Shown piece after piece: positions 26,162 through 44,004 of a stretch of 46,387 bases of DNA. The notes under the pieces were generated by a model. That model was not told where the DNA came from, ran no database searches, and saw only the letters and a program-made list of their open reading frames with translations. A program made the position numbers and the translations under genes. The stretch is from an uncultured virus (IMG/VR IMGVR_UViG_2061766007_000711) (lineage: Duplodnaviria > Heunggongvirae > Uroviricota > Caudoviricetes): IMG/VR virus record IMGVR_UViG_2061766007_000711, one strand, 5' to 3'. Within the stretch, counting starts at the first letter, position 1. Each line of letters starts with the position of its first letter.

Positions 26162-27507
26162 GGTCGAATCTCCTTTCCTGTGAGGTGTATCTCTTTGTTT
26201 CTGTCCCGGTCTTGCGACCGTCTGGGCCCTCCCCGTCGTCCCCCGGGGAGCACGGTGGTGGCAATGACAAATTCAAAGCGGAAACCGCGTGTGGTTTTCT
26301 TTCCCGGAACGTGTCTGCATATAGCGCTCACCTGTGGATGCTTCACCCCGATATGCCGGGCGGCATCGGCGATGGAGTCGTGTATCATCACCAGGTTTCC
26401 TTCTAGGTCGTATTGTGCCACCTTCTTTGCTATGTTTTCCCCGGGAGGGAACCACTCGTCGATATATCCTGCCTTCCGGCAAATTTCATAGGCCGCCTTG
26501 GAACCGTGCATGAAGGCGTTTCTGGAGTCGTATTTCATTGCCTCCTCGTGGAGTTCATCCTTGCTCATGTTGCTCCATGTTCCTGCCGGAGCTCTTTGTT
26601 TCTTTAGCCAGGTGCACTCCGAGTACCAATCTTTATTGTGCAACAGGGCATTGTATACGCTCATGTCGTTCTTCACGAGCTCTGACACTGTACTGTACTT
26701 CTTTGCCACTTCCAGGCAGTATTCCTTGGTGCGCTTTCCGGCAGCCAGGCCCCCGAGGCTTCCGCCGGGAGCGCTGTTCAGGAGTACCCATCCTTCCGAC
26801 GAATATTTCTCCATGGTCAGGCATTCCAGCTCGGCACCCTCCATGGGGGTGATTCCGTCCCTGATTACTACCGGGTAGGGTACCGGGACTCCCGAGGCCA
26901 TGGCGAACTCGTACACGGGGTCCCCGGGTTTCCTGTGGCTTGTGTCCCTTCTCCTTGGTTCTACCGTGCGTCCGACATATACCCGGTTTTGTTCCGGGAA
27001 CTCGTAAGCGTATACCATGTCCTTGAAACCACGGCTTATTATTTCCTCTTTCCTGGAAAGCCAAGTGAACCCTGGGAGAAGGCCGCGTCGCCATGCCATG
27101 TGCCACATGTGAGGGTCCTTTGTGCGGAAATCCTTGCCAGTGGAGTACTTCATGGCAGCGGCGGTCACCTCCTCGTCGGACACCTTCCTGGTGAGTTCCC
27201 CGCGTGAAAGGAACCACGTGTAGTCCTTCATCCACCCGTTTTTACGGGATAGCTTCCAGGCGGTGTGATAACGCCTCTTGAACTCGGACCTTCCCTTGCA
27301 CTCGCTGGCCAGTTCGAAACACTTCTCCCTGGTGAAGAAACCGGGGGGAGTCGTCTTTCTGTCGAACACGCGGTCCAGGATGCCGTATTTCTTGGCAGAC
27401 TGATAGCATGAGCTGTCGGCCTTGGCGAACTCCGCTATGCTATCATACTTTCGAGCCTCCTTCATACAGAAGGACTTCGTGAGTCTACGTCCACATGTGT
27501 ATCCCAT
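26158..27507 (-). CDS. GIY-YIG homing endonuclease with tandem helical repeats and NUMOD1-like C-terminal domain
   Basis: MVYAYEF...VYVGRT...RRRDTSH, ELE, LLN; repeated A-x-KY-x-S/T units; KKVAQYDLEGNLVMIHDSIADAARHIG...GFRFEF. Confidence 0.75.
   Translation of the reverse strand: MGYTCGRRLTKSFCMKEARKYDSIAEFAKADSSCYQSAKKYGILDRVFDRKTTPPGFFTREKCFELASECKGRSEFKRRYHTAWKLSRKNGWMKDYTWFLSRGELTRKVSDEEVTAAAMKYSTGKDFRTKDPHMWHMAWRRGLLPGFTWLSRKEEIISRGFKDMVYAYEFPEQNRVYVGRTVEPRRRDTSHRKPGDPVYEFAMASGVPVPYPVVIRDGITPMEGAELECLTMEKYSSEGWVLLNSAPGGSLGGLAAGKRTKEYCLEVAKKYSTVSELVKNDMSVYNALLHNKDWYSECTWLKKQRAPAGTWSNMSKDELHEEAMKYDSRNAFMHGSKAAYEICRKAGYIDEWFPPGENIAKKVAQYDLEGNLVMIHDSIADAARHIGVKHPQVSAICRHVPGKKTTRGFRFEFVIATTVLPGGRRGGPRRSQDRDRNKEIHLTGKEIRP
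26212..26257 (-). promoter_or_regulatory. GC-rich element copy 1 (putative phage promoter)
   Basis: TTGCGAC-N16-GTCGTCCCCCGGG-N3-CACGGTG on + strand. Confidence 0.7.
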
Positions 27508-27508
27508 G

Positions 27509-27730
27509 TTACAACCCCTCCCACTTGTCCATGTTGATGATTTTTAGTGAGCCCAGTATTCCACAGAATATGATGAATCCGAATATCCACGCAAAACCAG
27601 CCCATGGTCCAAAGTGTGCCATGGCAACAAACGCCCCGATTGTGTCTACTGTCCAGAAGAGTATTCCCTTGGTAGCCCAGACGAGAAATGCGGATACGGT
27701 CAAAACGCCTATCAATATAAGCAGTCCCAT
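27509..27730 (-). CDS. small membrane protein
   Basis: AAGGAG RBS; 73 aa, strongly hydrophobic. Confidence 0.65.
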   Translation of the reverse strand: MGLLILIGVLTVSAFLVWATKGILFWTVDTIGAFVAMAHFGPWAGFAWIFGFIIFCGILGSLKIINMDKWEGL

Positions 27731-27790
27731 ATACTATCTCCTTATCTTGGTATTGAGTTTCATGATAGCTTTCCTTTGCCCGTCCCGGTC

Positions 27791-27836
27791 TTGCGACCGT
27801 CTGGGCCCTCCCCGTCGTCCCCCGGGGAGCACGGTG
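27791..27836 (-). promoter_or_regulatory. GC-rich element copy 2
   Basis: same consensus; 27782-27842 identical to 26203-26263. Confidence 0.7.
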
Positions 27837-27910
27837 GTGGCACCCCGGAATACGCCGGAAGTCCCCGGGTTCTTCCCCGGGGACTCCCCAAACATGGCAA
27901 AACCAGTCCG

Positions 27911-28278
27911 CTACAGCAGCTCGCACTCTACCGGGACGAGCTCCCCGTAGTCCTTCTGCTCGTAGCCGTACTTCGCGATTCTGGCCAGGTATTCCTCCTC
28001 GCCGTACTGCATCGACCAGCTAGACCCGAAACGGGCCATGAACAGGTCACGGGCGACATCGTACGCGTCCGGGGTGTCCGGGACGCTTACCGTGGCCACN
28101 NNNNNNNNNACAGGTATTCCTCCTCGCCGTACTGCATCGACCAGCTCGTCCCGAAACGGGCCATGAACAGGTCGCGGGCGACATCGTACGCGTCCGGGGT
28201 GTCCGGGACGCTTACCGTGGCCACCACGCGGGAGTAGGTGGGGTGGCCCACGCCGAAGGTGAAATAGAATGTCTTCAT
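27911..28278 (-). CDS. hypothetical protein (MKTFYFTFGVGH...)
   Basis: AAGGAG RBS; internal gap duplication. Confidence 0.6.
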
Positions 28279-28308
28279 AGTATTCTCCTTGTATTTGAGG
28301 GGTTCTAC

Positions 28309-28893
28309 CTAGTTATCGCTTCTGCGGTCGAGATTGTCAATGGAAAATCCCAGGATATTCCGCTTGTCGCAGAACTCCCGGAGTTCCCCGGTCAACTTCT
28401 CGAGGCGCTTCTTCTCCCAGTCCGCGAGTCCGTAGGTGTACGGGTCGATGAAGACCTTCTCCACCTCGGCCTTCACGTCAAAGGTATCGGCTTCCTTTCC
28501 ATCATAGTTCACGTCCACTACCGGGATGGGCGCACCGCCCGGCTGGCGGTCGCGGTGCCCCTCCTCGTAGGAGAACAGCCTGATGCGGATTTCCGGGGTG
28601 GTTGTTGTGTAGAGCTGGATGTAGTTCTCCATGCCGCGTGCCTCCTTGCGCCACGAGTCGACGCGGAAGGTTACGGTGATGTAAAGGCCGTTCCCGTCGG
28701 AGCGCCCGGCGCGTTGCGTGTGCACGCGCATGCCCAGCTCATGGGACAGGGCCTCGGCCACTGCAAGGTCGAACTCCCAGATTACCCTGGCGGCGTCTTC
28801 AAGGTGCAGGATTTGGGAGAATGTCATCTTGTCGATGATTCCCGCCATCTGTGGGCGGGTCACTTCCAAAGAGAATGTCTGTTCGTCTGCCAT
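28309..28893 (-). CDS. hypothetical protein
   Basis: AAGGAG RBS, 194 aa. Confidence 0.7.
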   Translation of the reverse strand: MADEQTFSLEVTRPQMAGIIDKMTFSQILHLEDAARVIWEFDLAVAEALSHELGMRVHTQRAGRSDGNGLYITVTFRVDSWRKEARGMENYIQLYTTTTPEIRIRLFSYEEGHRDRQPGGAPIPVVDVNYDGKEADTFDVKAEVEKVFIDPYTYGLADWEKKRLEKLTGELREFCDKRNILGFSIDNLDRRSDN

Positions 28894-28911
28894 ATAGTGG
28901 TCTCCTTTGAC

Positions 28912-29466
28912 TTACCTGGGGGTGACCTGGATGTTCCTTATACCGGCATTCGCTTCGCCGTCGGTACGGCCGGGTTCACAGTCGATTGGCTTGTCGGCAA
29001 ATCTGAAGTTACCCAGTGTTCCGCCAACTTCCTCGGCAGCTTCCTTGTATATTCTTTCAAACAATTCCCGGGTAAGCCGTTTGCATACCGCGTCACGCAG
29101 GGGGAATGAATTGTATTCAAGATTGATTACNNNNNNNNNNTTGTTAAGTCGCTTGCATACCGCGTCACGCAGGGGGAATGAATTGTATTCAAGATTGATT
29201 ACCGTGTATGGGCCATTGGAGTATCCCTTAACTATCTTGTCAAGGAGTTCCTTCACGGAGTCAGTGGGGGACTTGGTGAGTCTCATCTCCTTGAACACGG
29301 CGATAGTGAACAGCACCCACCCGGCGGCCACCGAGTAAACCCCGGCGAACGCCAGCCAGCTGAAGCCCACGGCCACGGAGAGGATTCCCGTGCCGAGAAG
29401 CACGGCAAGGAACCCGGCGACGTAGAACGCGAGCGATGCCTTGTTGAATCCGAATCTTTTCATCAT
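28912..29466 (-). CDS. hypothetical protein with two N-terminal TM helices
   Basis: hydrophobic N-terminus; gap duplication inside. Confidence 0.6.
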   Translation of the reverse strand: MMKRFGFNKASLAFYVAGFLAVLLGTGILSVAVGFSWLAFAGVYSVAAGWVLFTIAVFKEMRLTKSPTDSVKELLDKIVKGYSNGPYTVINLEYNSFPLRDAVCKRLNXXXXVINLEYNSFPLRDAVCKRLTRELFERIYKEAAEEVGGTLGNFRFADKPIDCEPGRTDGEANAGIRNIQVTPR

Positions 29467-29468
29467 GC

Positions 29469-29852
29469 CTATGCCTCCTCTTTGTTGATTTCCACGCCGA
29501 GCGCCTTCAGGGTCATTTCGACGATGAGTGCGTTCGGGAAGGTATGCTGTTCCTGCTTGAACTGTTCACAGGCGGACTTCAGGCATTCCACCACGCGCTC
29601 GGACCGGTTTACTCCCTGCGTGACAACCTGTCCGTTGCCGTAGAATTTCCTTGCAACGTACGGGAGAGCCTCGGCGGGACACTTGACGAAAATTTCCGCG
29701 AACTCCTCGGACTTGTACCAGTCGGCTTCGTGTGCCTTCATGAAGGCGCGGAAGGCCTCGGGGTTGCACGTCTTGACATCTCCGCCCATGCGTTCATAAT
29801 ACTTGAACACCGAGTAGTTGAAAAGCCGTTGAAAAACTTGTTCAAAGTACAT
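29469..29852 (-). CDS. hypothetical protein
   Basis: GGAGG RBS, tight operon spacing. Confidence 0.7.
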   Translation of the reverse strand: MYFEQVFQRLFNYSVFKYYERMGGDVKTCNPEAFRAFMKAHEADWYKSEEFAEIFVKCPAEALPYVARKFYGNGQVVTQGVNRSERVVECLKSACEQFKQEQHTFPNALIVEMTLKALGVEINKEEA

Positions 29853-29853
29853 T

Positions 29854-30036
29854 TTATGCCTCCTTTGCGTCCTTGAATACTTTCCTTGCGAGGTGCGGGT
29901 GGCCGTCCTCGCCGATTACGGGGTACACCACTTCCTTGCCGCCCTTGACGAACTTGGTGTAGATGTCGCCCTTCAGGTATCCTTCCTTGACGAGCGACTC
30001 GATGAAAATGTTTGCTTCTTCCGTATATCCGGCCAT
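29854..30036 (-). CDS. hypothetical protein
   Basis: GAGG RBS, 60 aa. Confidence 0.6.
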   Translation of the reverse strand: MAGYTEEANIFIESLVKEGYLKGDIYTKFVKGGKEVVYPVIGEDGHPHLARKVFKDAKEA

Positions 30037-30179
30037 GTGTTACCTCATCTAGCGAACAAAAATTAAAAATTAAGCCGACGCCATGATTGCGTCCAGGATG
30101 ACGGAATNNNNNNNNNNCGTTACCTCCTAGTAATCAATGAGAACCATATCCATTTGTATAGTGAACAAAAAATTAAAAA

Positions 30180-30698: not shown

Positions 30699-30725
30699 GT
30701 TCCGTGCTCCTTTGAAATAAAAAAA

Positions 30726-31052: not shown

Positions 31053-31061
31053 GATGGCCTC

Positions 31062-31526: not shown

Positions 31527-31572
31527 TTGCGACCGCCGGGGTCATCCCTGTCGTCCCCCGGGGAGCACGGTG
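31527..31572 (-). promoter_or_regulatory. GC-rich element copy 3, abutting the CRISPR trailer
   Basis: same consensus and spacing. Confidence 0.7.
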
Positions 31573-31581: not shown

Positions 31582-32525
31582 ACCAAATTCCCGCCTGCGC
31601 GGGAAACATTGCTGCCATCAAGTGCAAACACGCCATTATTGTTTCAATTCCCGCTCGCGCGGGAAACATAACGGCAAGGTCAATCACACATGGGGCTCTT
31701 CGTTTCAATTCCCGCCTTCGCGGGAAACATATAATGACTCCTTCAACGATTACGCGACCGTAGTTTCAATTCCCGCCTGCGCGGGAAACATTCGAGGGCC
31801 TGACTGTCCGCCATCTCCCGCCGCAATTTCAATTCCCGCCTGTGCGGGAAACATCGGGAAATCGTACAAGATTTACCTCCCCACAACTTTTCAATTCCCG
31901 CCCGCGCGGGAAACATTGGAGAAGATTGAGCTTCCCATCAAGTACATATTTCAATTCCCGCCCGCGCGGGAAACATCGTTTATGATTCCAGACCTCATTA
32001 CATCTCCTTTTCAATTCCCGCCCGCGCGGGAAACATCAGCAGCTGATGACAGCTGTGCTCGGCATCCCGTTTCAATTCCCGCCCGTGCGGGAAACATCTT
32101 AACGCGCAAGGCGTAGCCGAAATTACGATGTTTCAATTCCCGCCCGCGCGGGAAACATAGCTGGACACGTTCCAGGTCGGCTTCGACTATTTTCAATTCC
32201 CGCCCGCGCGGGAAACATCCTGGGCTGCTGTCAGCGGGCCATAGCCGATATTTCAATTCCCACCCGCGCGGGAAACATAGATTTGGCAGCGCGACACTAC
32301 CGTGGACGAGTNNNNNNNNNNNNNNNNNNNNNNNNNNNNNNNAACATTTGTTCTGCGACGCCATGTTGCCGTAGTAGTCATTTCAATTCCCGCCCGAGCG
32401 GGAAACATCACGTCGGGGTCCTCCCGGTAGTCCGGGGTGCACTTTCAATTCCCGCCCGCGCGGGAAACCTTATAAGCGACGCCACGAGGACATGTTCAAA
32501 TGATTTCAATTCCCGCCCGCGCGGG
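31582..32525 (-). CRISPR. CRISPR array, at least 16 repeats of 28 bp (+ strand TTTCAATTCCCGCCCGCGCGGGAAACAT), 15 visible unique spacers of 32-35 bp; no cas genes in window
   Basis: regular 60-63 bp period, 7-bp stem/4-nt loop, minus strand ends ATTGAAA; degenerate repeat at left end; one internal gap and leader side lost in gap. Confidence 0.95.
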
Positions 32526-32535
32526 NNNNNNNNNN

Positions 32536-32808: not shown

Positions 32809-33280
32809 TTAGTTGACTGGCTTGATGTCCCTGTCGCTGCACACGGCGAGCCCTTCCGGGCTCGTCAGGTAGTCGACGCATTCCTTCATCGTCCCGAAAT
32901 GGGGATATTTTACCCTGTCGAAGCGGCAGTTGAAGCGGGAAAGCCGGTTGTCTCCGTCCGTGGTCTCGCGGGAGAGCACGGAGCTGTACCAGCACTTCGA
33001 GATGTTGAAAATCATGCAGTGCGTGATGCCGTGGACTTTCTCGTCGCGAAAGCCGCCGAACACCTCGTCGCACCTCCCCTGCCATACGCAGCCGGGGAGA
33101 GTTTTCTGGTTTGGCCTGAGGTCTTCCCAGAGCTTCCACCCGGGATTGTCCTTGAACGGGGATATGTTGCTCCGGCCCAGAGCAATCAGCTCGCTTAGGT
33201 TCTCGCGTTGATACTGGTATACCCATACGGCGAAGCCGCCGCCTTCCGGGCTGCCCTCCGCATGTACCCTTCGCATCATG
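32809..33280 (-). CDS. hypothetical protein (5' end in gap; divergent allele at 33292-33651)
   Basis: open frame ...VWVYQYQRENL...CSDRDIKPVN. Confidence 0.55.
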
Positions 33281-34434
33281 TNNNNNNNNNNGCTATCCCG
33301 TCGAAGCGGCAGTTGAAGCGGGAAAGCCGGTTGTCTCCCCCGGTCAGCTCGCGGGAGAGCACGGAGCTGTACCAGCACTTCGACACGTTGAAAATCATGC
33401 AGTGCGTGATGCCGTGGACTTTCGCCTCGGAAGGCCAGCGGCCGAACACCTCGTCGCACCTTCCCTGCCATACGCATCCCGGGAGCCTTCCCTGGTCGGG
33501 CCCGTGGTCTTCCCACAGCCGCCACCCGGGATTGTCCTTGAACGGGGCTATGTTCCTCTGGCCGAGCGCAATCAGCTCGTTGAGGTTCTCGCGTTCGTAC
33601 TGGTATACCCACACGGTGAAGCCGCCGCCTTCCGGGCTGCCCTCCGCATGTANNNNNNNNNNNNNNNNNNNNNNNNNNNNNNNNNNNNNNNNNNNNNNNN
33701 NNNNNNNNNNNNNNNNNNNNNNNNNNNNNNNNNNNNNNNNNNNNNNNNNNNNNNNNNNNNNNNNNNNNNNNNNNNNNNNNNNNNNNNNNNNNNNNNNNNN
33801 NNNNNNNNNNNNNNNNNNNNNNNNNNNNNNNNNNNNNNNNNNNNNNNNNNNNNNNNNNNNNNNNNNNNNNNNNNNNNNNNNNNNNNNNNNNNNNNNNNNN
33901 NNNNNNNNNNNNNNNNNNNNNNNNNNNNNNNNNNNNNNNNNNNNNNNNNNNNNNNNNNNNNNNNNNNNNNNNNNNNNNNNNNNNNNNNNNNNNNNNNNNN
34001 NNNNNNNNNNNNNNNNNNNNNNNNNNNNNNNNNNNNNNNNNNNNNNNNNNNNNNNNNNNNNNNNNNNNNNNNNNNNNNNNNNNNNNNNNNNNNNNNNNNN
34101 NNNNNNNNNNNNNNNNNNNNNNNNNNNNNNNNNNNNNNNNNNNNNNNNNNNNNNNNNNNNNNNNNNNNNNNNNNNNNNNNNNNNNNNNNNNNNNNNNNNN
34201 NNNNNNNNNNNNNNNNNNNNNNNNNNNNNNNNNNNNNNNNNNNNNNNNNNNNNNNNNNNNNNNNNNNNNNNNNNNNNNNNNNNNNNNNNNNNNNNNNNNN
34301 NNNNNNNNNNNNNNNNNNNNNNNNNNNNNNNNNNNNNNNNNNNNNNNNNNNNNNNNNNNNNNNNNNNNNNNNNNNNNNNNNNNNNNNNNNNNNNNNNNNN
34401 NNNNNNNNNNNNNNNNNNNNNNNNNNNNNNNNNN

Positions 34435-34764: not shown

Positions 34765-34810
34765 TTGCGACCGCCGGGGTATCCCCGGTCGTCCCCCGGG
34801 AGACACGGTG
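34765..34810 (-). promoter_or_regulatory. GC-rich element copy 4 (upstream of spoVG)
   Basis: same consensus and spacing. Confidence 0.7.
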
Positions 34811-34826: not shown

Positions 34827-35930
34827 CTACTTTCCCGTGGAAACGGCCTCGGCGACGATGCCGCTTGCGTCCAGCTTGGTCACGAGGGCTCCCCATGCCT
34901 TGCGCTCGGCCGCCGCCTTGCGCTCTTCCGGGGTGGCCCCGGTGGCTTCGACCGTGGTCGTGTACGTCACCGTCACCGTGAAGGTTTCCTTGGTCTTGGG
35001 CATCACCTTCGCCTTCTTCGGGGAGGCCGTCTTCGCGAGCTGCTTCTCGCCGATGGCCGTCCCCTTCATCTTGGCGCCGGACAGGTCGGCCCCGTCAAGG
35101 ATGGCCTTGCCGAACCTCGCGTCCTCCAGGTCGGCCCCGGAGAGGTTCGCCCCGGACAGGTCGGCCCGGGCGAAGTCCGCATCCTTGAGCCATGCGCCGG
35201 ACAGGTCGGCCCCGGTCATGTCCGCCCCGTTGAACTTCGTCTCGCCCAGGCCCGTGCGGAGGTTCGCCCCGCGCAGGCTGGCGCTTGAAAAGTTCACGCG
35301 CTCGGTATGGCGCAGGCCGGAAAGGTCCGCCCCGTCGAGCATGGCGCCGGAAAAGTCGCCCTCGGCGATATACGCGCCGCCGAAGGCCGCGCCGTCGAAG
35401 GTGGCCTTGGCGAATACAGCCTCGCGGATATACGCGTCCTTGAAGCTCGTCCGGACGCACTTCGCGCCGCCGAAGTCGGCCCCGGTGAAGTTCACCCCGG
35501 CCAGTTTCGCGTCGGTCAGGTCGGCCCCGGACAGGTTCGCCTCGTATCCCCGGGCCCTCCTGAGATTCGCCCCGGACAGGTTCGCGGAGGAGAAGTCGGC
35601 CTTCTCCACGTTGGCGCTGCGTAGGTTGGCCCCGGAGAGGTCGGCCCCGGCCATGTCGGCGTACCAGAGGTCCGCCCCGGAGAGGTCGGCCCCGGCCATG
35701 TTCGCCCCGGCAAGGTCAACCAGCCTGAGACGGGCCTTGCGGAGGTCCGCCCCGGAAAGGTCAAGCCCGGAAAGGTCGTTCCCTTCGAGGTCGGCCATCA
35801 TGCCCTCCCAGCCATCGCAGTCCTTGGCGAGCCAGTGCCTGTGGTTCTCGAGGATGACGGCGAGTTCCCCGGCGGATACCCTTACGGCCTTGTCCCCCTT
35901 CAGTACGTTTCTCCATTTCTTGTCAAACAT
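34827..35930 (-). CDS. pentapeptide-repeat protein
   Basis: ILENHRHWL head then long A(D/N)LSG repeats; AGGAG RBS before ATG 35930. Confidence 0.9.
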   Translation of the reverse strand: MFDKKWRNVLKGDKAVRVSAGELAVILENHRHWLAKDCDGWEGMMADLEGNDLSGLDLSGADLRKARLRLVDLAGANMAGADLSGADLWYADMAGADLSGANLRSANVEKADFSSANLSGANLRRARGYEANLSGADLTDAKLAGVNFTGADFGGAKCVRTSFKDAYIREAVFAKATFDGAAFGGAYIAEGDFSGAMLDGADLSGLRHTERVNFSSASLRGANLRTGLGETKFNGADMTGADLSGAWLKDADFARADLSGANLSGADLEDARFGKAILDGADLSGAKMKGTAIGEKQLAKTASPKKAKVMPKTKETFTVTVTYTTTVEATGATPEERKAAAERKAWGALVTKLDASGIVAEAVSTGK

Positions 35931-35983: not shown

Positions 35984-36029
35984 TTGCGACCGCCGGGCAC
36001 TCCACGGTCGTCCCCCGGGAGGCACGGTG
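35984..36029 (-). promoter_or_regulatory. GC-rich element copy 5
   Basis: same consensus and spacing. Confidence 0.7.
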
Positions 36030-36030
36030 G

Positions 36031-36210
36031 TTACGGGGTATCCACCGGGACCTTCGCGAACTCCTCCGGGGAGACCTCGTGCCTCGCCCCGGACGCCATC
36101 GTTACCCGGTATACGGACCCCTCGCCGTAGCCGATGGGCTTGCCCTTGATGAAGCTCTCCATAAGGGCCACGTTGAGACGGTTGCCGTATATGTCCTGTA
36201 TGAACATCAT
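36031..36210 (-). CDS. 59-aa hypothetical protein (MMFIQDIYGNRLNV...) absent from the ORF track
   Basis: translated by hand; AAGGAG RBS, TAA at 36031-36033. Confidence 0.6.
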   Translation of the reverse strand: MMFIQDIYGNRLNVALMESFIKGKPIGYGEGSVYRVTMASGARHEVSPEEFAKVPVDTP

Positions 36211-36237: not shown

Positions 36238-36561
36238 TTACAGCCCGACCTTGCCGGGTTCCCCATGCATGGTTGTCTCCGTCACGGTAACCCCCTGCAC
36301 GGACACCTTCTTCCCCCTGCGGGTTTCCCTAACGGCAATCTTCCCGCAAGGCCCGTGCATGGTCAGGTAGACGAACCGGGTATACGCACCCGAACGGTCG
36401 CTCCCGGCCACGAGCCTCACGATTGTATCACCCGATACGCTCTCCCTAGCTATCCCGTTCAGCTCGTCGAACAGGGCCTCGAACGAAGAAAATGTCTTGC
36501 CGGATATGCGCTTCCCGCATTCCTCACCGAAACGTACCGATTCATCCGATATTGCCTTCAT
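36238..36561 (-). CDS. hypothetical protein
   Basis: AAGGAG RBS. Confidence 0.65.
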   Translation of the reverse strand: MKAISDESVRFGEECGKRISGKTFSSFEALFDELNGIARESVSGDTIVRLVAGSDRSGAYTRFVYLTMHGPCGKIAVRETRRGKKVSVQGVTVTETTMHGEPGKVGL

Positions 36562-36581: not shown

Positions 36582-37145
36582 TTATTTCCCGTAACCCTGC
36601 TCCCGGGAACTTCTCACCATTTTGGTAACGACCGAGGCCACGTCGTCCGGGTCGAGCGTCGCGGTCCCGTGCTTACGCTGGCTGGGCCAGTCGATTTCCA
36701 CGCAGTTCTTGCTCGGGTCGGCTGGATATACCGTAATCTCGAAGTTCCACGCTCCGCGCCACGGGTCTTCGTCCGAGTCCGGGGCGTACCATGACCCCTC
36801 TACGCAGTATGCGCCGCACGTATTCCGTGTCGCCCTGATAACGAACTGGCCCTCCCCGAACGGGGCGGGTACGCGGAAGGCCGGGCCGAGGATTTCCTTC
36901 ACCATCTTTTCCTCCGCCTTCTCGAGCGCGGAGTGGGCGTCCAGGAATTCCGAAAGCCTGGCGGGTGTCACGTCGCGGCAGTCCACCAAGTCAACCTGCC
37001 CGGTCATGAAGGATTCCCTCATTTCCCGAGCGGTGTCGTCGGCCTTCTTCCTGGCCATCACCGGGTCGTCGTCGCGCACGAGCGCCACCCTGGGCCTGTA
37101 TGCCGGGTTAATCGGGTAGGCCGTAATCTTGTATACCGTTTCCAT
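36582..37145 (-). CDS. hypothetical protein (METVYKITAY...)
   Basis: AGGAG RBS after element copy 6. Confidence 0.7.
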   Translation of the reverse strand: METVYKITAYPINPAYRPRVALVRDDDPVMARKKADDTAREMRESFMTGQVDLVDCRDVTPARLSEFLDAHSALEKAEEKMVKEILGPAFRVPAPFGEGQFVIRATRNTCGAYCVEGSWYAPDSDEDPWRGAWNFEITVYPADPSKNCVEIDWPSQRKHGTATLDPDDVASVVTKMVRSSREQGYGK

Positions 37146-37200
37146 GTCCACTGTCTCCTGTGTAAAAAGATTAAATAAGCCCGTTGCCTGTATGGCCTGC

Positions 37201-37246
37201 TTGCGACCGCCGGGCACTCCCCTGTCGTCCCCCGGGAGGCACGGTG
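37201..37246 (-). promoter_or_regulatory. GC-rich element copy 6
   Basis: same consensus and spacing. Confidence 0.7.
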
Positions 37247-37800
37247 AGGGGAACCCCTCCCCACGGAATCCCCCGGAAGCCCCACGGAAGCCCCCTCGGT
37301 GGTTCCACCGGGAACACACGGGGGATACCCGGCGCCCGCGCCTGCCCCCCTCCCCGCTCCCCACATTCNNNNNNNNNNNNNNNNNNNNNNNNNNNNNNNN
37401 NNNNNNNNNNNNNNNNNNNNNNNNNNNNNNNNNNNNNNNNNNNNNNNNNNNNNNNNNNNNNNNNNNNNNNNNCCTCCCGGGAAACCCCAAGTACCCCCCA
37501 TGGAACACCCCGGAAACCCCCCTGCTCCCGGAGCCCTCCGAGGACTATCCAAGGACACCCCGGGGCCTTCCGAGGACTCTCCCGGGATACTCCGAGGACG
37601 CTCCTGGGATACCCCGGGGATTTCCCGGGAGGTTCCTGTCGTCCCCCGGGGGGCACGGTGGTGGGTACATGGTTCCGCCGGGCATCAGGGGAGCGGCCGG
37701 TGGAATTCACTCGGAATATCCATTGGAATCTCCATGGAATCCCCCGGGGAATCCCCACGGAATCCCCCGGGAGTGTCCTGTGGAATGTCCCGGGGTATAC
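37247..37800. repeat. non-coding GC-rich tract of CCCGG/GGAANCCCC units including a partial element (37638-37660) lacking the TTGCGAC box
   Basis: low-complexity sequence, only Pro/Gly-rich spurious ORFs. Confidence 0.55.
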
Positions 37801-37803
37801 ACG

Positions 37804-37832
37804 AAAGGCCCCCGCCCATTCGGGCGGGGGCC
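37804..37832 (-). terminator. probable terminator
   Basis: GGCCCCCGCCC-ATTC-GGGCGGGGGCC with TTT on - strand. Confidence 0.6.
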
Positions 37833-37871
37833 ACTCGGAGTTGCCCGGGGGTTACCCGGGAGCGTTACATG

Positions 37872-38426
37872 CTAGACTTCGTAGACGGGCACGACGGTAA
37901 TCTTGGCGTCCTCCACGGGGTTGCCTTCGGAGTTGCGGGCCTGGAGGGACTCGCGGGCTGCCTGGATGGCGTCCTCGTAGGTGTCGGAGACGGGTAGGTC
38001 GTAGAGCCTGACGATTTTCCCGTCTTCGCCCGTGGTGTTGATTACGGCTACGAATCCGTCGGGTTCGGGTCCGAGTCTGCCGTCGAGGGTCGAGTTGATG
38101 TCGTCCACCTTGGAGTCGACGGAGTCCACCTTGGAGTCGAGGTCGTCTACCTTGGAGTCCAGGGTGTCGACCTTGTCGTCCACGGTGTCGACCTTGTCGT
38201 CGACGTCGTCGATGGTCACCTTGCGGCTTCTGTGCCAGGAGGGCCAGGAGAAGCCGCCGACGGTCCTGACGAAGGCCGCGCCGGCGAAGGCGAGGATGGC
38301 TGCGCCGCCGACTGCGAGTTCGACGACGGTGGTGGGGGTGCCCTTGCCGGTGGCGACGAGGTAAGCGTCGGTGCCGAGAAGGACGAGGATGGCTGTTGCC
38401 ACGATATAGATAAGGAACTTTGTCAT
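37872..38426 (-). CDS. membrane-anchored protein with heptad-repeat coiled coil
   Basis: two hydrophobic N-terminal segments; (D-D/S-KVD-x-V/L/I) x5. Confidence 0.7.
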   Translation of the reverse strand: MTKFLIYIVATAILVLLGTDAYLVATGKGTPTTVVELAVGGAAILAFAGAAFVRTVGGFSWPSWHRSRKVTIDDVDDKVDTVDDKVDTLDSKVDDLDSKVDSVDSKVDDINSTLDGRLGPEPDGFVAVINTTGEDGKIVRLYDLPVSDTYEDAIQAARESLQARNSEGNPVEDAKITVVPVYEV

Positions 38427-38494: not shown

Positions 38495-38540
38495 TTGCGA
38501 CCGCCGGGGTTATCCCTGTCGTCCCCCGGGAGGCACGGTG
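38495..38540 (-). promoter_or_regulatory. GC-rich element copy 8
   Basis: same consensus and spacing. Confidence 0.7.
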
Positions 38541-38758
38541 GTGGGGAACCGGGGTACCGGGTCTCCCGGGGGAGGAGACGGCGGTGCCGGGCGGCGGGCC
38601 CTGGTGATGTCGGCGGGGGCGTCCCCCCGGATTTCCCGGAGGACCCCGGCGAGTTCCCGGGTGGCCTTGGTGTTCTCCCGGATGGAGTCCGCGATTTCGT
38701 CAAGGGCGTTGATGAGCTGCGCCTGGAAGCGCTGCTCGCCTATGGTGGGTATGGACAT
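38510..38758 (-). CDS. hypothetical protein whose 3' end runs into element copy 8
   Basis: GGAGG RBS, TAATG coupling. Confidence 0.55.
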   Translation of the reverse strand: MSIPTIGEQRFQAQLINALDEIADSIRENTKATRELAGVLREIRGDAPADITRARRPAPPSPPPGDPVPRFPTTVPPGGRQG

Positions 38759-39725
38759 TAGCCTTCCTCCTTGTCGAGAAGGGTGAGGTTGACGGATTCC
38801 TTCCCGGGAATTTTCCCGGTACGGAGCCTGAGTCCCCCGGGGGTTGCCTCGAGGCTAGCCCCGTGCTTGGCGAGGATGGAGCCCATGCTGGCCATCAGGT
38901 ACTTGAGCTGGTTGACGTCCTGTTCCGGTATGGGCTTGGGTGCGGTTACCTCCGTGAAATTCTTGATGAGGAACGGGAGGGCATCGCGGTGGCTCCGGTA
39001 GATGTTCTTGGAGGGAGTGCCGTCCTTGCCCGGTATGGTGATGCCGCACATGTACTTGGTGTCGCCTTCCGGGAAGAAGGACTCGAAGACCTTGATTTCC
39101 GGGGCGTCGCTATTGGGCGTGACCTGTCGGGCGGTCAGTTCGTTGTCAATCCTGANNNNNNNNNNCGGGGAGTGCCGTCCTTGCCCGGTATGGTGATGCC
39201 GCACATGTACTTGGTGTCGCCTTCCGGGAAGAAGGACTCGAAGACCTTGATTTCCGGGGTGTCGCGCTTGGGATTGACCTGGCGGGCGGTGAGCTCGTTG
39301 TCAATCCTGAGGAACTTCACCGTGGTGACCGGGGCGGATGTGGTGATTCCCGGGACGGACTCCACGAGCTTGACTAGGGAAGTCTGGAGGTTGCGGATGT
39401 CGTCGTAGGCCTTGCGGAAGTCGGCCATGCAGTCCGTGGGTTTCGCAGTCTTCTGCTTGGCATTGTAGAACTCCGCGAAGCACTTGGCGGCGTCCTCGAC
39501 GAAGTCGGGATTGCCTACAGAGTCGAAGGACTTCCACTTGTTGTTCCTGGTGTCCCGTACGTGCAGTTCGTACTTGCCGTTCGCCGGGTCGTAGACGTTC
39601 TTGGTCAGGGAAACGCCGTCGGCCAGGATGAAGCCCTCGGGGTCGACCTGGCTCGGGATGTCGGGGAACGTCCTCCTGATGACGTAGTTGATTTCCTGGT
39701 ATGTATTGATATGCGGATTTGCCAT
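38758..39725 (-). CDS. hypothetical protein (MANPHINT...)
   Basis: AAGGAG RBS; internal gap duplication. Confidence 0.6.
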
Positions 39726-39804
39726 AGGTGTGTCTCCTTTAGTAAAAAAAANNNNNNNNNNATGCGGATTTGCCATAGGTGTGTCTCCTTTAGTAAAAAT
39801 TATT

Positions 39805-40230
39805 TTACTTGATTACCTTGATTTCCTTGAGCATGTCCTTGATGCCCTGTTCGGAGAACTGGAAGTCCTTTACCGTGGGCAGCTTTGGCGCCTTCGGGAC
39901 GGTGGATAGGTGGAGCCCGGTCTTCCCCGGCTTCTCCTTGTTGACCACGACGTCGACGTAGTACAGGCTGTCCTTCTTCCTGTCGACACTGATGCCGAAA
40001 TTGAAGACGACCAGGCTGGTTCCGCCGTGGACGGTATAGGTGTAGATGGGGTTGACGGACGCCTTCTTCTTGGAGATGGAGGTCACGAGGGTGTTGAACA
40101 TGTTGTGGAGGCCGTCCCCGATACGGAAGCCGAGGAGGTTGTACTCGCGGATGTTCTTGAACAGTTCCTTGGACTGTTCCTCCCGGGTCATCCCGGTAGT
40201 CTTCTTGGTGGTAGTCTTGGTCTTTGCCAT
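39805..40230 (-). CDS. hypothetical basic protein
   Basis: AGGAG RBS after element copy 9. Confidence 0.7.
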   Translation of the reverse strand: MAKTKTTTKKTTGMTREEQSKELFKNIREYNLLGFRIGDGLHNMFNTLVTSISKKKASVNPIYTYTVHGGTSLVVFNFGISVDRKKDSLYYVDVVVNKEKPGKTGLHLSTVPKAPKLPTVKDFQFSEQGIKDMLKEIKVIK

Positions 40231-40276
40231 AGGTATCTCCTGTAAATAAATAAAAAATTTTTCCGGTGACCCGGGG

Positions 40277-40322
40277 TTGCGACCGCCGGGGAGTTCCCGG
40301 TCGTCCCCCGGGAGGCACGGTG
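40277..40322 (-). promoter_or_regulatory. GC-rich element copy 9
   Basis: same consensus and spacing. Confidence 0.7.
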
Positions 40323-40365
40323 GTACGCAATAGGGGTTCCCCGGGGTTCCCTCCGGATAATCCGG

Positions 40366-40535
40366 TTATGCCTTGTAGATGTCGATGAAGTTGTCCTCGG
40401 AGTCGAGGTTCGTCTTGTCGATGGACTTCCTCACATACCACTTTTCCTTTCCGATGATTACCGGGCGGCAACCCTGGATAGGGGCATAGTCCGGGTCACC
40501 GGAGGACCACAGGTTTCCCTGGTTCTTCTTGTAAT
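40366..40535 (-). CDS. 3' fragment of hypothetical protein
   Basis: open frame YYKKNQG...DIYKA, rest in gap. Confidence 0.45.
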
Positions 40536-40903
40536 ANNNNNNNNNNNNNNNNNNNNNNNNNNNNNNNNNNNNNNNNNNNNNNNNNNNNNNNNNNNNNNNN
40601 NNNNNNNNNNNNNNNNNNNNNNNNNNNNNNNNNNNNNNNNNNNNNNNNNNNNNNNNNNNNNNNNNNNNNNNNNNNNNNNNNNNNNNNNNNNNNNNNNNNN
40701 NNNNNNNNNNNNNNNNNNNNNNNNNNNNNNNNNNNNNNNNNNNNNNNNNNNNNNNNNNNNNNNNNNNNNNNNNNNNNNNNNNNNNNNNNNNNNNNNNNNN
40801 NNNNNNNNNNNNNNNNNNNNNNNNNNNNNNNNNNNNNNNNNNNNNNNNNNNNNNNNNNNNNNNNNNNNNNNNNNNNNNNNNNNNNNNNNNNNNNNNNNNN
40901 NNG

Positions 40904-40926
40904 GTCGTCCCCCGGGGGGCACGGTG
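40904..40926 (-). promoter_or_regulatory. GC-rich element copy 10 (truncated by gap)
   Basis: GTCGTCCCCCGGG-GGG-CACGGTG. Confidence 0.55.
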
Positions 40927-41119
40927 GTGGACACCGGGAGATTCGAGGAGGTTCCCTGGAAGCTCTTCCGGGGACAGGCACGAATTCTCCGTGCCGGAAA
41001 ACGAAAGAACCCCCCGGGAGTTNNNNNNNNNNCTCCGCGTAGTAGTCGCAGCTTTCGAGGCTGTCGTCCACGGAGATGGTGAATTCCGGGTCNNNNNNNN
41101 NNGATGCTGTGCCATGGTA

Positions 41120-41416
41120 TTATTCCTCCACTACCTTCCCGTCGAGGATGGCGGCGAGCTCGTCGGCGTCGTCCCTGGAGGGCAGGTTTACGATGTAACG
41201 GTTTTCCGCGTAATAGTCGCAGCTTTCGAGGCTGTCGTCCACGGAGATGGTGAATTCCGGGTCGTCGAGGGCGAGGGACGAGTCGATGTCGCCGTCGCCG
41301 TCCGCGTAGAAGCGGGCGAAGAGCTCGTTGACTTCGTCAAAGACGGGTTCGCCGGAGAAGTGCTGGAGCACCTCGTCGATTCCCTCGTATGTAGTGATGT
41401 TCACTGTCTGTGCCAT
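41120..41416 (-). CDS. small very acidic hypothetical protein
   Basis: AGGAG RBS; Asp/Glu-rich 98 aa. Confidence 0.7.
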   Translation of the reverse strand: MAQTVNITTYEGIDEVLQHFSGEPVFDEVNELFARFYADGDGDIDSSLALDDPEFTISVDDSLESCDYYAENRYIVNLPSRDDADELAAILDGKVVEE

Positions 41417-41445
41417 AGGTTGTCTCCTGATTTGGGGATAATGGG

Positions 41446-41607
41446 TTAAAGTTTCTCAATTTTGTCCGAAACAGAAAACATTGCTTCGTAGTCGTCGCAT
41501 ACATCGGAAATTTCGTTGATGTAGTCAGTAAACAGGGTTTTCAGGTACTTCGCCTCTTTCTTGGTGAGGTTCAGCGTAATTGCCGTGGGTTTTGCATTTT
41601 TTGCCAT
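41446..41607 (-). CDS. small hypothetical protein (MAKNAKPT...)
   Basis: AAGGAG RBS after element copy 11. Confidence 0.6.
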   Translation of the reverse strand: MAKNAKPTAITLNLTKKEAKYLKTLFTDYINEISDVCDDYEAMFSVSDKIEKL

Positions 41608-41635
41608 AATTGTCTCCTTTGATGTTGCTATCCGG

Positions 41636-41681
41636 TTGCGACTGCCGGGGGATTCCCTGTCGTCCCCCGGGGGGCACGGTG
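41636..41681 (-). promoter_or_regulatory. GC-rich element copy 11
   Basis: same consensus and spacing. Confidence 0.7.
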
Positions 41682-41828
41682 GTGGACACCGGGTTTCTCG
41701 AAAGGCGCCTCTCGGAAGCTCTCCGGAGACAGGCACGAATTCTCCGTGCCGGAAAACGAAAGAACCCCCCGGGAGTTTCCCGGGAGGTTCCGTTCAGGAG
41801 ACAAAAAATATTTATTTACTTGGATGTA

Positions 41829-42558
41829 TCATCCAGGGAGGAATTTCCTGCTGATTTTCGAGTCGATTTTCCCGTTCTCGATGTGGAAGGTGAAATTGTC
41901 GGGGTCTGACTGCCCGTTCCAGGGGTCGTTGAAGTAGAAGTCCACGCACATGGCGTCGATTTCCCGGGAGAATTCGTTCGACATCTGGTCAAAGAGTTCC
42001 TTCACGTCGTCGCAGTCGCACTCGACGGATTCCCACGCGTTGTAGTCGGGGTAGCCGTGGAGGTTAGCGTAGAACGGGTATGGGTCTTCGTTCGCGGTAA
42101 CCATTTTCTCGAAGGCGCCGCGCCAGGCTGCGTAGAGCTGTCCGTAGGTGAAGTGCTGCTCGCCCACCAGTTCTCCCGGGTTGTACCCCTTGGGGAAGCC
42201 GGGAACCCTGTAGGGCTTGAAGCCGAGTCGCTTGGCTTCTGCAATGGAGGTCACCGGGGTCAGCTTGGTGACGCATTCGGTGCTGTCCTTCTTGAGGGTG
42301 ATGGCGAACCAGCGGGCATTGCTGGCGAGCGCCTGCTTGGCGAGCTTCAGTGTGGTCCTGTCGCCCTTCTTGTTCCATCCTATCTTGCCTTCCGCCCATT
42401 CCTTGATGATTTCCACGATTTCGCGGGTGACGGCAGTTCCTGCTGTAACCGCGTGGGGGCGGAGGTATCGGTCGAGTTCGATGTTCTTGTCCATAGCNNN
42501 NNNNNNNCGTGACCGCGTGGGGGCGGAGGTATCGGTCGAGTTCGATGTTCTTGTCCAT
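41829..42558 (-). CDS. hypothetical protein (MDKNIELD...)
   Basis: 221-aa ORF; start duplicated across gap (42494 and 42558). Confidence 0.65.
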
Positions 42559-42585
42559 AGTTGTCTCCTTTTTGGTATCTCCCGG

Positions 42586-42631
42586 TTGCGACGGGAGGGG
42601 CCGGTGCGGTCGTCCCCCGGGGAGCACGGTG
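42586..42631 (-). promoter_or_regulatory. GC-rich element copy 12 (allelic duplicate at 42708-42753)
   Basis: same boxes and spacing with unrelated N16 spacer sequence. Confidence 0.7.
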
Positions 42632-42946
42632 GTGGACACCGGGGTTTCCTGGAGCATCAGGGGCTGCCGCGGCNNNNNNNNNNTGTCTCCTTTTTGGTAC
42701 CTCCCAGTTGCGACGGGAGGGGCCGGTGCGGTCGTCCCCCGGGAGGCACGGTGGTGGACACCGGGGTTTCCTGGAGCATCAGGGGCTGCCGCGGCNNNNN
42801 NNNNNTGCACCGCGCCAGGCTGCGTAGAGCTGTCCGTAGGTGAAGTGCTGCTCGCCCACGGTTTCACCTGGGTCGTACCCCTTGGGGAAGCCGGGAACCC
42901 TGTAGGGCTTGAAGCCGAGTCGCTNNNNNNNNNNCCTATGGAAAGG

Positions 42947-43486
42947 TTATTGCTTGAGGAAGCCGAGCTCGAAGACCATCGGGAGCATCTTGTCCTTGAG
43001 GGCATTGAAGTCGGCCTTGAGCTGGGCGAACTGTTCCGGACAGCTTTCTTCGAAGAGTCCCTTAAGCTGTCTCCAGCCGCAGTCGTAGCGGTNNNNNNNN
43101 NNATTAACCCAAATGGTTGTAGATACGATACCAGAAAACCCGTGCCTCAATGCGATTTCTGCAGGGAGAGCCTTGACAACCATTTCCCAGGTTACCGTAG
43201 CGTTCTTTGCGGCACGCTTGAAACCGCGTTCGCCCGGCTGAACTTTCAAGTCGTTCATTCCCAGTTCGACAACGGCCTCGGCGAAGTCTTCGGGGTTACT
43301 GTCAATCCAGTCCTTGATTGCACACTTGACGTTGAGCTTAAAGTTCTTTTCCGTACTATGTACGGATTTGAGCAAAAAGACTCGGGTGCCGCCATCATCC
43401 TCGTTACACATTACCTTGTAGATGTAAGGATAATTGGCTTCTGCCGTCTCGTCGGCGAATTTCGGTAATACTGCTTTCTTTGCCAT
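42947..43486 (-). CDS. hypothetical protein (joined across a gap; may be two genes)
   Basis: AAGGAG RBS at start; 3' part beyond gap unverified. Confidence 0.5.
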   Translation of the reverse strand: MAKKAVLPKFADETAEANYPYIYKVMCNEDDGGTRVFLLKSVHSTEKNFKLNVKCAIKDWIDSNPEDFAEAVVELGMNDLKVQPGERGFKRAAKNATVTWEMVVKALPAEIALRHGFSGIVSTTIWVNXXXXRYDCGWRQLKGLFEESCPEQFAQLKADFNALKDKMLPMVFELGFLKQ

Positions 43487-43654
43487 AGTTATCTCCTTGG
43501 TGATTAAAATTTTAATGCTTGACTAATAGCCTTATATTAAAATTTGCAGTCGTCCAGCGCGCCCATGTCCCTCTCCTCCATCTCCGCCAGGAATTCCACG
43601 AGNNNNNNNNNNTCTTGTTCATAGGTTCCCTTTCCTAAATTAGATGTTTTACTC

Positions 43655-43862
43655 CTAGATTTTCCTTTCTTCCAGCGCGCCCATGTCCCTCTCCTCCATC
43701 TCCGCCAGGAATTCCACGAGTTCCCCGGCGTCGTCCAGGGAGGGCATGTCGAAATGCATCTCGAAGGAGTCGCCCGCAGCGTCCCCGGTGGCGACCTCGC
43801 CCTTCTCGCCGGAGAGGCGTTCGACGAGTGTAGCGTCATTGGCGCCCGCATAGAAATTGAAG
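43655..43862 (-). CDS. small acidic hypothetical protein (5' end in gap)
   Basis: open frame FNFYAGAND...ALEERKI. Confidence 0.5.
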
Positions 43863-43878
43863 NNNNNNNNNNTCGGGG

Positions 43879-43924
43879 TTGCGACTCCCTGCACCGGTAC
43901 GGTCCTCCCCGGGGGAGCACGGTG
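43879..43924 (-). promoter_or_regulatory. GC-rich element copy 14 (variant middle box GTCCTCCCCGGGG)
   Basis: outer boxes and spacing conserved. Confidence 0.65.
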
Positions 43925-44004
43925 GTGGACACCGGATTACCCCGGGGTACCCCCTGTCGTCTTCCGGAAGTTTCGGGATGCCGCATGCCGAGTACAGTAT
44001 ATCC

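Follow-up and report, generated by a model that had tools for sequence, protein, structure and literature searches.

The repeated element and the genes behind it

The DNA analysed here (the window, taken at its full length) is a scaffold of 46,387 nucleotides (nt) from an uncultured virus of the Caudoviricetes (IMG/VR record IMGVR_UViG_2061766007_000711), in which 43 runs of N make up 1952 N in total. On its minus strand lies a GC-rich element of about 46 nt, CACCGTG-N3-CCCGGGGGACGAC-N16-GTCGCAA, whose three conserved words are referred to below as boxes 1, 2 and 3. The element is present in 12 full and two partial copies, named here by their first position, and several of the N runs adjoin them. 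The nature of this element and its candidate reader, a sigma-70-family protein encoded on the minus strand at 22387-23160, are the subject of this analysis.

Scanning of the plus strand for TTGCGAC-N16-GTCGTCCCCCGGG with up to 3 mismatches gave 12 matches as compared to 0.02 expected from shuffled sequences, and none of 100 shuffles reached that number. Eleven of the full copies match without any mismatch while copy 43879 carries two. The upstream half, CACCGTG-N3-CCCGGGGGACGAC, is matched 14 times in the window, always on the minus strand, and the two matches beyond the full copies are the partial copies at 37638-37660, which lacks GTCGCAA, and at 40904-40926, which is cut by the N gap at 40537-40902. 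A profile built from 11 copies and run with nhmmer over both strands of the window recovered at E < 0.5 only the 12 full and two partial copies, with none on the plus strand and none outside 26.2-43.9 kb. The spacing of the boxes is the same in all 12 full copies, without insertion or deletion, in a pattern whose gaps are themselves fixed. The flanks of copy 42586 (42586-42631) are repeated around 10-N gaps at copy 42708 (42708-42753), which is probably a scaffolding or allelic duplicate. The first-pass annotation of this DNA, made by a model from the letters, had listed the same 12 starts and two partial copies, and its claims of an invariant geometry, a single orientation and a probable allelic duplicate at 42708 are all borne out; the scaffold-wide motif search it had proposed returned no further copy.

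Genes on the minus strand were called by their Shine-Dalgarno-led starts, and such a start is found downstream of the element in 10 of the 10 copies with readable downstream sequence (copy 43879, at 43879-43924 and with both mismatches in box 2, runs into an N gap, and copy 42708 is the duplicate). The distances from GTCGCAA to the start codon are 28, 28, 32, 45, 46, 49, 50, 53, 60 and 68 nt, in agreement with the 28-69 bp given earlier. The putative transcription units headed by the copies consist of one to about nine genes each, most of them small. Copy 42586 heads gene 41829-42494, with 28 nt from GTCGCAA to the visible start, and copy 41636 (41636-41681) heads genes 41446-41607 and 41120-41416. 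Genes 39805-40230 and 39135-39776 follow copy 40277 (40277-40322), and gene 37872-38426, which encodes a coiled-coil protein with a weak XhlA-like match, follows copy 38495 (38495-38540). Further along the strand, copy 37201 (37201-37246) heads genes 36582-37151, 36238-36561 and 36031-36210, copy 35984 (35984-36029) heads a pentapeptide-repeat gene (34827-35930), copy 34765 (34765-34810) a SpoVG-domain gene (34719-32809), and copy 31527 (31527-31572) a run of about nine small genes from 31494 down to 28087. Copy 27791 (27791-27836) heads an open reading frame (ORF) of 73 amino acids (aa; 27509-27730) and a NUMOD1/homing-endonuclease-like ORF of 449 aa (26158-27507). The last copy, 26212 (26212-26257), heads gene 25826-26161, behind which 25168-25815, an FtsK-like gene (23959-25107) and a RadC gene (23318-23917) follow without a further element. 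Taken together, the block holds SpoVG-domain, pentapeptide-repeat, homing-endonuclease-like, FtsK/SpoIIIE-like and RadC genes along with many small genes without a match.

The first-pass annotation had counted copies inside genes as a point against a promoter. Two copies overlap the ends of upstream ORFs: copy 26212 sits within the last ~33 codons of the NUMOD1 ORF, and copy 38495 provides the final 9 codons and the stop of ORF 38510-38758. Strong hairpins with T tracts, resembling terminators, are located 79-146 nt upstream of four of the 14 copies, all on the minus strand. The hairpin at 44010-44041 (13 pairs and TTTTTT) lies 85 nt upstream of copy 43879; that at 41761-41791 (14 pairs and a T tract), behind gene 41829-42494, lies 79 nt upstream of copy 41636; that at 41008-41022 lies 80 nt upstream of copy 40904; and that at 37807-37832 (11 G-C pairs and a T tract), behind gene 37872-38426, lies ~145 nt upstream of copy 37638. 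No sigma-70-like site was found between these terminators and the four copies, nor at any copy. Copy 35984 follows the stop of gene 36031-36210 by 1 nt and copy 34765 that of the pentapeptide-repeat gene by 16 nt; there is no terminator ahead of either, and both are probably transcribed through, a situation that would suit an element acting in RNA, which is weighed below. A search for RNA runs containing this DNA listed none, and one run of contigs, whose RNA nature is only guessed, gave a single 263-nt contig inside the pentapeptide-repeat gene and is uninformative on transcription starts.

The partial copy 37638, with boxes 1 and 2 only, was said earlier to have no gene directly downstream; it does lie in a non-coding, GC-rich stretch of about 450 nt (37250-37860, minus strand). 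This stretch also contains arrays of GGGGATTCC-like words with a period of 11-12 nt, corresponding to one helical turn, at 37259-37294 (just ahead of copy 37201), 37536-37629 and 37713-37771. The arrays beside copies 37201 and 37638, together with conserved boxes at rigid, lineage-specific distances, are what would be expected if the boxes were operators for a phage DNA-binding regulator flanking a weak core promoter, for which the AT-rich stretches that separate five copies from their Shine-Dalgarno sequences could provide a weak -10 box. The specificity of the polymerase would then be encoded elsewhere than in the conserved boxes. There is a precedent in plasmids of the pLS20 family, where the establishment-gene regulatory sequence EGeRS2 is described as a strong promoter flanked by repeated repressor sites before several operons (PMC8708921). 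Such an arrangement seems quite improbable to us, as no candidate regulator was identified, most copies have no AT-rich -10 inside or upstream of them, and where the start codon is nearest, at 28 nt, a separate promoter would not fit downstream of the copy.

Copies 27791 and 26212 are identical over 60 nt and flank a cassette formed by the 73-aa ORF and the 449-aa NUMOD1 ORF (26158-27836), which suggests that the cassette was inserted or duplicated by recombination at the element. In a related locus (L016, positions 2800-4206), an ORF directly behind an element encodes a protein from the PHROG family of the NUMOD1 ORF. One could suppose from the cassette, and from the richness of the block in small orphan genes, that the element is mainly a repeat of selfish or recombinogenic character, either a miniature mobile element or a cassette boundary, with any effect on expression being secondary; the PeSL elements (promoter-early stem-loops), composite terminator/promoter motifs, are described as mediating swaps of this kind (PMC4122927). 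We consider this highly improbable. The copies have a single orientation (14 of 14 in the window and 116 of 116 in related records) and a fixed place ahead of start codons, elements precede orthologous genes in four contigs, and neither terminal inverted repeats nor target duplications were seen.

Three further repeats were noted in the block. A CRISPR array occupies 31585-32528 on the minus strand and ends ~12 nt before copy 31527. It comprises 14 repeats that match TTTCCCGCGCGGGCGGGAATTGAAA with up to 3 mismatches (0 expected), followed by a degenerate final one. The 28-nt repeat (ATGTTTCCCGCGCGGGCGGGAATTGAAA) recurs with a period of 60-62 nt, and the array is interrupted by two N gaps. PADLOC gave no cas or defence match among 18 window proteins, and the spacers had no match in the phage collection. 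A tandem repeat of a 386-nt unit (1.9 copies) in the coding region at 32917-33652 adjoins a 782-N gap and may stem from the assembly. Another, of a 21-nt unit (5.3 copies), lies at 38102-38212 within the coiled-coil gene.

A sigma-70-family protein and a probable host-like promoter motif

The gene at 22387-23160, at the downstream end of the element block and unnoticed in the first-pass annotation, encodes a protein of 257 aa which matches the PHROG family 'RNA polymerase sigma factor' (E = 8e-8). SigK/sigma-70 models of NCBIfam are matched by 19 of 19 aligned family members, at scores below the equivalog cut-offs. In comparisons of profiles with the Protein Data Bank (PDB), residues 25-129 align to residues 72-175 of RpoS (E = 1.9e-6), corresponding to region 2, and residues 139-243 align to residues 545-639 of RpoD, corresponding to region 4. 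The Pfam model Sigma70_r2 matches the window protein weakly (16.4 bits, below the cut-off) and exceeds the cut-off in the homologues of two large phage records introduced below (G002 and G003), and PF04545 is matched in two relatives. An AlphaFold model of the protein (predicted local distance difference test score 74) retrieves sigma factors throughout its top 50 PDB matches, including full-length sigma chains. Relatives with 46-98% identity are present on contigs of up to 472 kb. Judged by these profiles and the predicted fold, the protein appears to be a full-length, group-3-like sigma factor without a close named relative. About 70 nt before its start codon lies a host-like -10 box, TTATATTT (23230-23237, minus strand), and a TATATT-type box is found ahead of the sigma gene in three of three loci of this clade, namely the window and the related loci L010 and L011.

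A second promoter-like motif, CTATATTT, occurs eight times in the window as compared to 0.42 expected, and all occurrences are within 53-14091. They lie at 157, 4095, 6946, 8978, 9175, 12867 and 14084 on the plus strand and at 60 on the minus strand, directly after terminator-like hairpins and 25-50 nt before start codons. In seven of the eight, a terminator-like or T-rich stretch precedes the motif, which reads as a TG-n-TATATT extended -10 box. The T-rich-TG-CTATATTT arrangement thus resembles the extended -10 promoters common in hosts, and the box TTATATTT ahead of the sigma gene is a variant of it. From 14091 to the end of the window CTATATTT is absent, and hence it is absent from the element block, which agrees with the earlier statement that no host-type motif stands upstream of the element-headed genes. 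The plus-strand half of the window encodes a tRNA nucleotidyltransferase, an AAA ATPase, a DUF932 protein, kinases and a SprT-like protein. At 8978-9169 and 9175-9804, on either side of a 10-N gap, a CoaE-like kinase gene begins twice in nearly the same way (MPNNSGIILNLITGK... and MSNNSGIILNLITGK...), and an CTATATTT box accompanies each beginning; these are probably allelic contig ends joined in scaffolding.

Element variants in related phages

Comparison of window positions 21001-46000 with deposited phages and plasmids by megablast gave no match. Among viral contigs, exact scanning for boxes 1 and 2 gave 0 matches, scanning for GGGGACGAC-N16-GTCGCAA gave nine single matches, one per contig, which we took as chance, and protein-guided scans with the sigma factor and the FtsK-like protein gave none. 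In a genome collection the sigma profile had no match, and the pattern scan gave 18 single matches without hairpins, again taken as chance. A metagenome scan with the sigma alignment led to nine loci. The order of an FtsK-like gene followed by the sigma gene is kept in the window, in the related loci L015 and L016 and in a 253-kb phage record.

The nearest relative, L010, encodes a sigma factor which is 77% identical to that of the window, aligns without gaps and has near-identical predicted DNA-reading helices. It contains five copies of a variant element on the gene strand, before Shine-Dalgarno-led starts, in the order ACCACCGTG, hairpin TCCGCGCAGGCGGGA, 11 variable nt, TCCCsGGGGATACC and GCAA. 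CACCGTG stands exactly 38 nt from GGGGATACC in five of five copies, and GCAA follows 8-9 nt after the GGGGATACC-box stretch in the three copies that keep it. CACCGTG, the GGGGATACC-like word and GCAA are thus common to the window and L010 while the three-box geometry with N16 is not kept. In copy 4408 of L010, GCAA is only 1 nt away from the Shine-Dalgarno sequence. The variant element also holds an extra 26 nt with a hairpin like that of the CRISPR repeat in the window. This first hairpin (GTCCGCGCAGGCGGGAC/A) gives two matches with up to 3 mismatches, at 1170-1186 and 6956-6972, as compared to 0.12 expected, and none of 200 shuffles reaches two. It could be a solitary CRISPR-repeat-like unit built into the L010 element.

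A more distant clade, in which the sigma factor is ~30-34% identical to that of the window, carries a third type of element: ACC-n-ACCGTG, 37 nt and ATCGTA, often with GCAAC 3 nt later. Four metagenome contigs contain 20 copies, all with a start-to-start distance of 43 nt, and the 37 nt between the boxes are only 50% identical. With the types in the window and L010 it shares only ACCACCGTG and GCAA. A pattern scan with this type reached three IMG/VR phage records, and a covariance model was built from 63 gap-free copies. The model finds 47 copies across a 42 kb fragment (G001, CheckV completeness 10%), 34 copies at 160.6-201.1 kb of a 203 kb record (G002, 52%) and 35 copies at 26.9-81.9 kb of a 253 kb record (G003, 99%), and it has no match in the window or in L010. 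All 116 copies in these records are on one strand. In the stretches fetched for closer inspection, 113 of 113 copies are on that strand, 108 have exactly the model length of 69 nt, and 109 are followed within 150 nt by an ORF of 40 codons or more with a Shine-Dalgarno-led start. Box 3 and the start codon are separated by a median of 27 nt (10th-90th percentile, 25-36 nt). A strong terminator-like hairpin with a T tract lies up to 110 nt upstream of 20 of the 113 copies, as compared to 34 of 1130 random sites taken on that strand; in 14 listed examples it ends 6-39 nt ahead of the element, too close for another promoter to fit in between. In four contigs, elements precede three orthologous genes, of which one is FtsK-like and one is the sigma gene.

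The large records were also searched for polymerase parts. Sigma70_r2 has one match in the 253-kb record, namely the homologue of the window sigma, while the 203-kb record has two sigma genes. The RNA polymerase beta and beta' families have no match in either record, with control matches in 14 of 14 genomes. PF00940, representing T7-like polymerases, was matched in 0 of 2 related records, in a search whose control was matched in no genome. Since the 203-kb record encodes a large terminase, the lineage is that of a phage. In these two records the motif TGNTATATTT occurs 15 and 13 times (G002 and G003, respectively; controls 0-2), and all 13 occurrences in the 253-kb record fall outside the element block. 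The 10-mer TGCTATATTT is found again unchanged, 13-15 times, in both, and its exact conservation between phages whose sigma factors are ~33% identical is notable.

Between the boxes of the third type we observed an imperfect hairpin of ~30 nt whose arms co-vary. In an arm-swap test on 20 copies, native halves fold at -16.4 kcal/mol as compared to -13.0 kcal/mol for swapped halves, and none of 20000 permutations reaches the native value. For 63 copies and a fixed-column structure of 13 pairs, 66.3% of the cells are paired against 61.0 +/- 0.8 in shuffles, 66 cells are changed on both sides against 34.9, and the covariation score is 0.207 against 0.133; none of 500 shuffles reaches any of the three values and the unslid register is the best one, with the caveat that related sequences can beat shuffles without having a structure. 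RNAalifold predicted a common structure neither from 14 nor from 63 copies, and fixed-column covariation on 14 copies was not significant. The evidence for a co-varying hairpin in the distant clade is good but not final. G-U pairs (51) are not commoner than A-C mismatches (57) in the stem, and sense and antisense strands fold equally well, which argues for a true inverted repeat and not for a stem formed in RNA only.

The hairpin bears directly on the possibility that the element acts in RNA as a conserved leader or signal between cistrons, be it an endoribonuclease processing site, a stabilising structure, a nut-like antitermination site or the site of a translational regulator, and is transcribed from promoters elsewhere. 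Two single-stranded-looking boxes around a co-varying hairpin are the usual look of a protein-binding RNA, and whole hairpins are gained or lost between the boxes across lineages, as with the extra 26 nt in L010, which an RNA accommodates easily and which is awkward for a rigid promoter. Further, in L016 and L013 the element ahead of the sigma gene closely follows a TATATT-like box, so that the element would lie in a leader, and the closeness of GCAA to the Shine-Dalgarno sequence in copy 4408 of L010 would fit a role in the transcript just as the two copies directly behind upstream stops would. However, RNA stems and loops normally vary in length, whereas the exact length is kept in 12 of 12 copies in the window, five of five in L010 and 108 of 113 in the distant clade while the sequence between the boxes drifts to ~50% identity. 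The absence of a G-U excess, the terminators that leave no room for a promoter ahead of the element, and the fact that no other promoter motif was seen in blocks of 18-55 kb also speak against it. In the window itself, where a hairpin of the form CCGGGG...CCCCGG had been suspected, none of the 10 distinct copies folds better than its dinucleotide shuffles (z between -0.39 and +1.38), so that a hairpin in this element type is not supported; Rfam covariance models gave 0 matches at gathering score over the whole window, and a tRNA scan of the window found nothing. On balance, we regard a role in RNA as rather unlikely, although it is the strongest of the alternatives.

It is conceivable that host RNA polymerase with the phage sigma factor reads the promoter partly by DNA shape, with the boxes held at an exact distance and the hairpin of the sister clade extruding from supercoiled DNA. 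We think of this as unlikely in the specific form given, and as leaving a modest chance of a sigma-read, structure-dependent promoter. If true, reading by DNA shape would make this the first sigma-dependent hairpin promoter, and the L010 variant, with its hairpin like the CRISPR repeat of the window, could tie the regulon to CRISPR-repeat-binding proteins.

Interpretation and comparison with known systems

The first-pass annotation had proposed a promoter class heading transcription units, with box 2 as the -35 box, a freely varying N16 as the spacer, GTCGCAA as the -10 box and CACCGTG as an activator site. The general idea fits all tests described here, whereas the exact assignment of the boxes is unsupported. 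The arrangement GACGAC-N16-GTCGCA does have the 16-18 bp spacing of the two sigma-70 boxes in 12 of 12 copies. In a sigma-70 promoter, however, the spacer is fixed in length and free in sequence, while the 10 distinct N16 spacers are 58% identical in pairwise comparison as against 32% in the 24 nt upstream and 42% in the 20 nt downstream, and seven of the 10 fit the pattern [AC]G[GT]G...CCCGGC[AG]. The putative -10 box GTCGCA (12 of 12 copies) is GC-rich and has neither A at position 2 nor T at position 6, and the boxes are unlike any known -35/-10 pair. The geometry is also not kept in L010, in spite of near-identical putative recognition helices, so a rigid two-box reading by the sigma factor does not carry over to that locus. 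A transcription start 5-8 nt past GTCGCAA, as put forward in the same annotation, would in copy 4408 of L010 remove the ribosome site. Transcription may start at GCAA or just behind it.

Other promoter types were considered and set aside. For sigma-54 (TGGCAC-N5-TTGCA) the spacing misfits by eye in L016, L010 and the window. Sigma factors of the extracytoplasmic function type have the consensus GGAAC-N16/17-CGT, and the corresponding distances are 19 nt in the window (GGGAC-GTC) and 12 nt in L016 (GGGGAC-CGTA). Single-stranded-DNA promoters of conjugative plasmids were rejected because the hairpins are far too short to include both boxes and the lineage is that of a phage.

Features shared by the three types together point to a temporal promoter class: the restriction to one strand, the position directly before genes, the exact length, the confinement to a single block which excludes TG-CTATATTT, and the frequent placement behind terminators. 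With moderate confidence, and from sequence comparison, we favour the view that the element represents a phage-specific class of promoters, confined to one lineage with very large genomes and probably read by host RNA polymerase together with a phage sigma factor. We infer that transcription starts at the element, that the sigma factor reads it, and what part each box would play. A host core with a phage sigma would be the economical reader because no polymerase gene is detectable and the sigma gene is conserved in the neighbourhood.

Several observations weigh against reading by this sigma factor. The conserved spacer, the off-consensus -10 box, the lack of resemblance to known box pairs and the different geometry in L010 have been given above, and to these the co-varying hairpin of the distant clade has to be added, as a plain double-stranded promoter needs no such structure. 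In that clade the sigma gene itself is headed by the element in five loci (L014, L015, L016, L017 and G002), which would need self-activation or another reader. The link between sigma factor and element is partly circular, since most related loci were fetched via the sigma gene. Finally, a T7-like polymerase may be encoded, and very divergent phage polymerases could escape the Pfam models.

If the favoured reading is correct, the course of events could be as follows. The sigma gene, lying behind its host-like TTATATTT box, would be made first by the unmodified host polymerase. The product of 22387-23160 would then associate with the host core RNA polymerase and direct it to the element, each copy of which would start a unit of one to ~9 mostly small minus-strand genes, while the rest of the genome would depend on the host-like extended -10 promoter TG-CTATATTT. 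The two separate signals would thus split the genome into two regulons.

To our knowledge, very large phages of gut and rumen are known almost only from assemblies. The present analysis provides a testable regulon map for such a lineage, in which a host-like TG-CTATATTT class stands beside a private GC-rich one, present in 12 to ~47 copies per record within one block, and one sigma gene would be the obvious switch. If confirmed, the element would be a promoter type with no counterpart among the consensus sequences described for phages or bacteria and would offer an orthogonal sigma-promoter pair for synthetic biology, and in related metagenomic genomes the sequence alone would suffice to assign early and late genes, including the phage-borne CRISPR array. 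Literature searches on phage promoters, phage sigma factors and huge phages turned up no account of the motif. The systems that it partly resembles are compared with it below.

A PeSL is a terminator hairpin fused to a host sigma-70 early promoter. In T4-type phages, PeSLs are described as small conserved composite motifs among small variable genes of plastic regions that are also recombination points (PMC4122927). The window copies resemble them in layout, and 27791 and 26212 likewise flank an exchangeable cassette made up of the 73-aa and NUMOD1 ORFs. They differ in having neither a sigma-70 site nor a significant hairpin, and the terminators are separate, 79-146 nt upstream of four copies.

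The promoters of the N4 virion RNA polymerase are described as having conserved bases with an inverted repeat whose non-conserved stem bases need only pair (PMC4496689). Their stems are 5-7 bp long with 3-nt loops centred at -11, and a giant T7-like polymerase is the reader. The distant clade shows such pairing-only stems, without an excess of G-U over A-C, as expected for DNA; its hairpin, however, is ~30 nt long with the centre ~20 nt upstream of the 3' box, and the resemblance is confined to that clade and does not extend to the window's own copies.

On conjugative plasmids of the pLS20 family, the EGeRS are described as conserved GC-richer sequences with inverted repeats before several operons of small variable genes (PMC8708921). 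The window likewise carries FtsK-like, RadC, DUF932 and SprT-like genes. The differences are that EGeRS1 is 400-600 bp long, that EGeRS2 is a sigma-A promoter with repressor sites, and that the hosts of these elements are plasmids, whereas the lineage studied here is that of a phage (terminase, CheckV). The lambda nut site (boxA-boxB) combines a linear box with a hairpin and acts in the transcript near the start of an operon. It differs from the present element in being found once per operon as compared to 34-47 copies per record, in having no exact length and in not standing directly after terminators.

The private promoters of the phages SPO1 and T4 are AT-rich and short. The cascades of SPO1 (gp28, gp33/34) and T4 (gp55) resemble the reading favoured for the window in combining an own sigma factor with a private, uniform promoter before many genes, while the window element is unlike their promoters in its length of ~46 nt, its GC-richness and its three boxes, and its candidate sigma factor is a full-length, group-3-like protein. 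As a whole, the element lacks defining features of each of the SPO1/T4, PeSL and N4 systems. SPO1 is nevertheless a large phage which is described as switching from host promoters to its own sigma on the host core polymerase (PMC13401047), and by analogy the element would work most like the private promoter sets of such sigma-bringing phages, SPO1 and the late genes of T4 among them.

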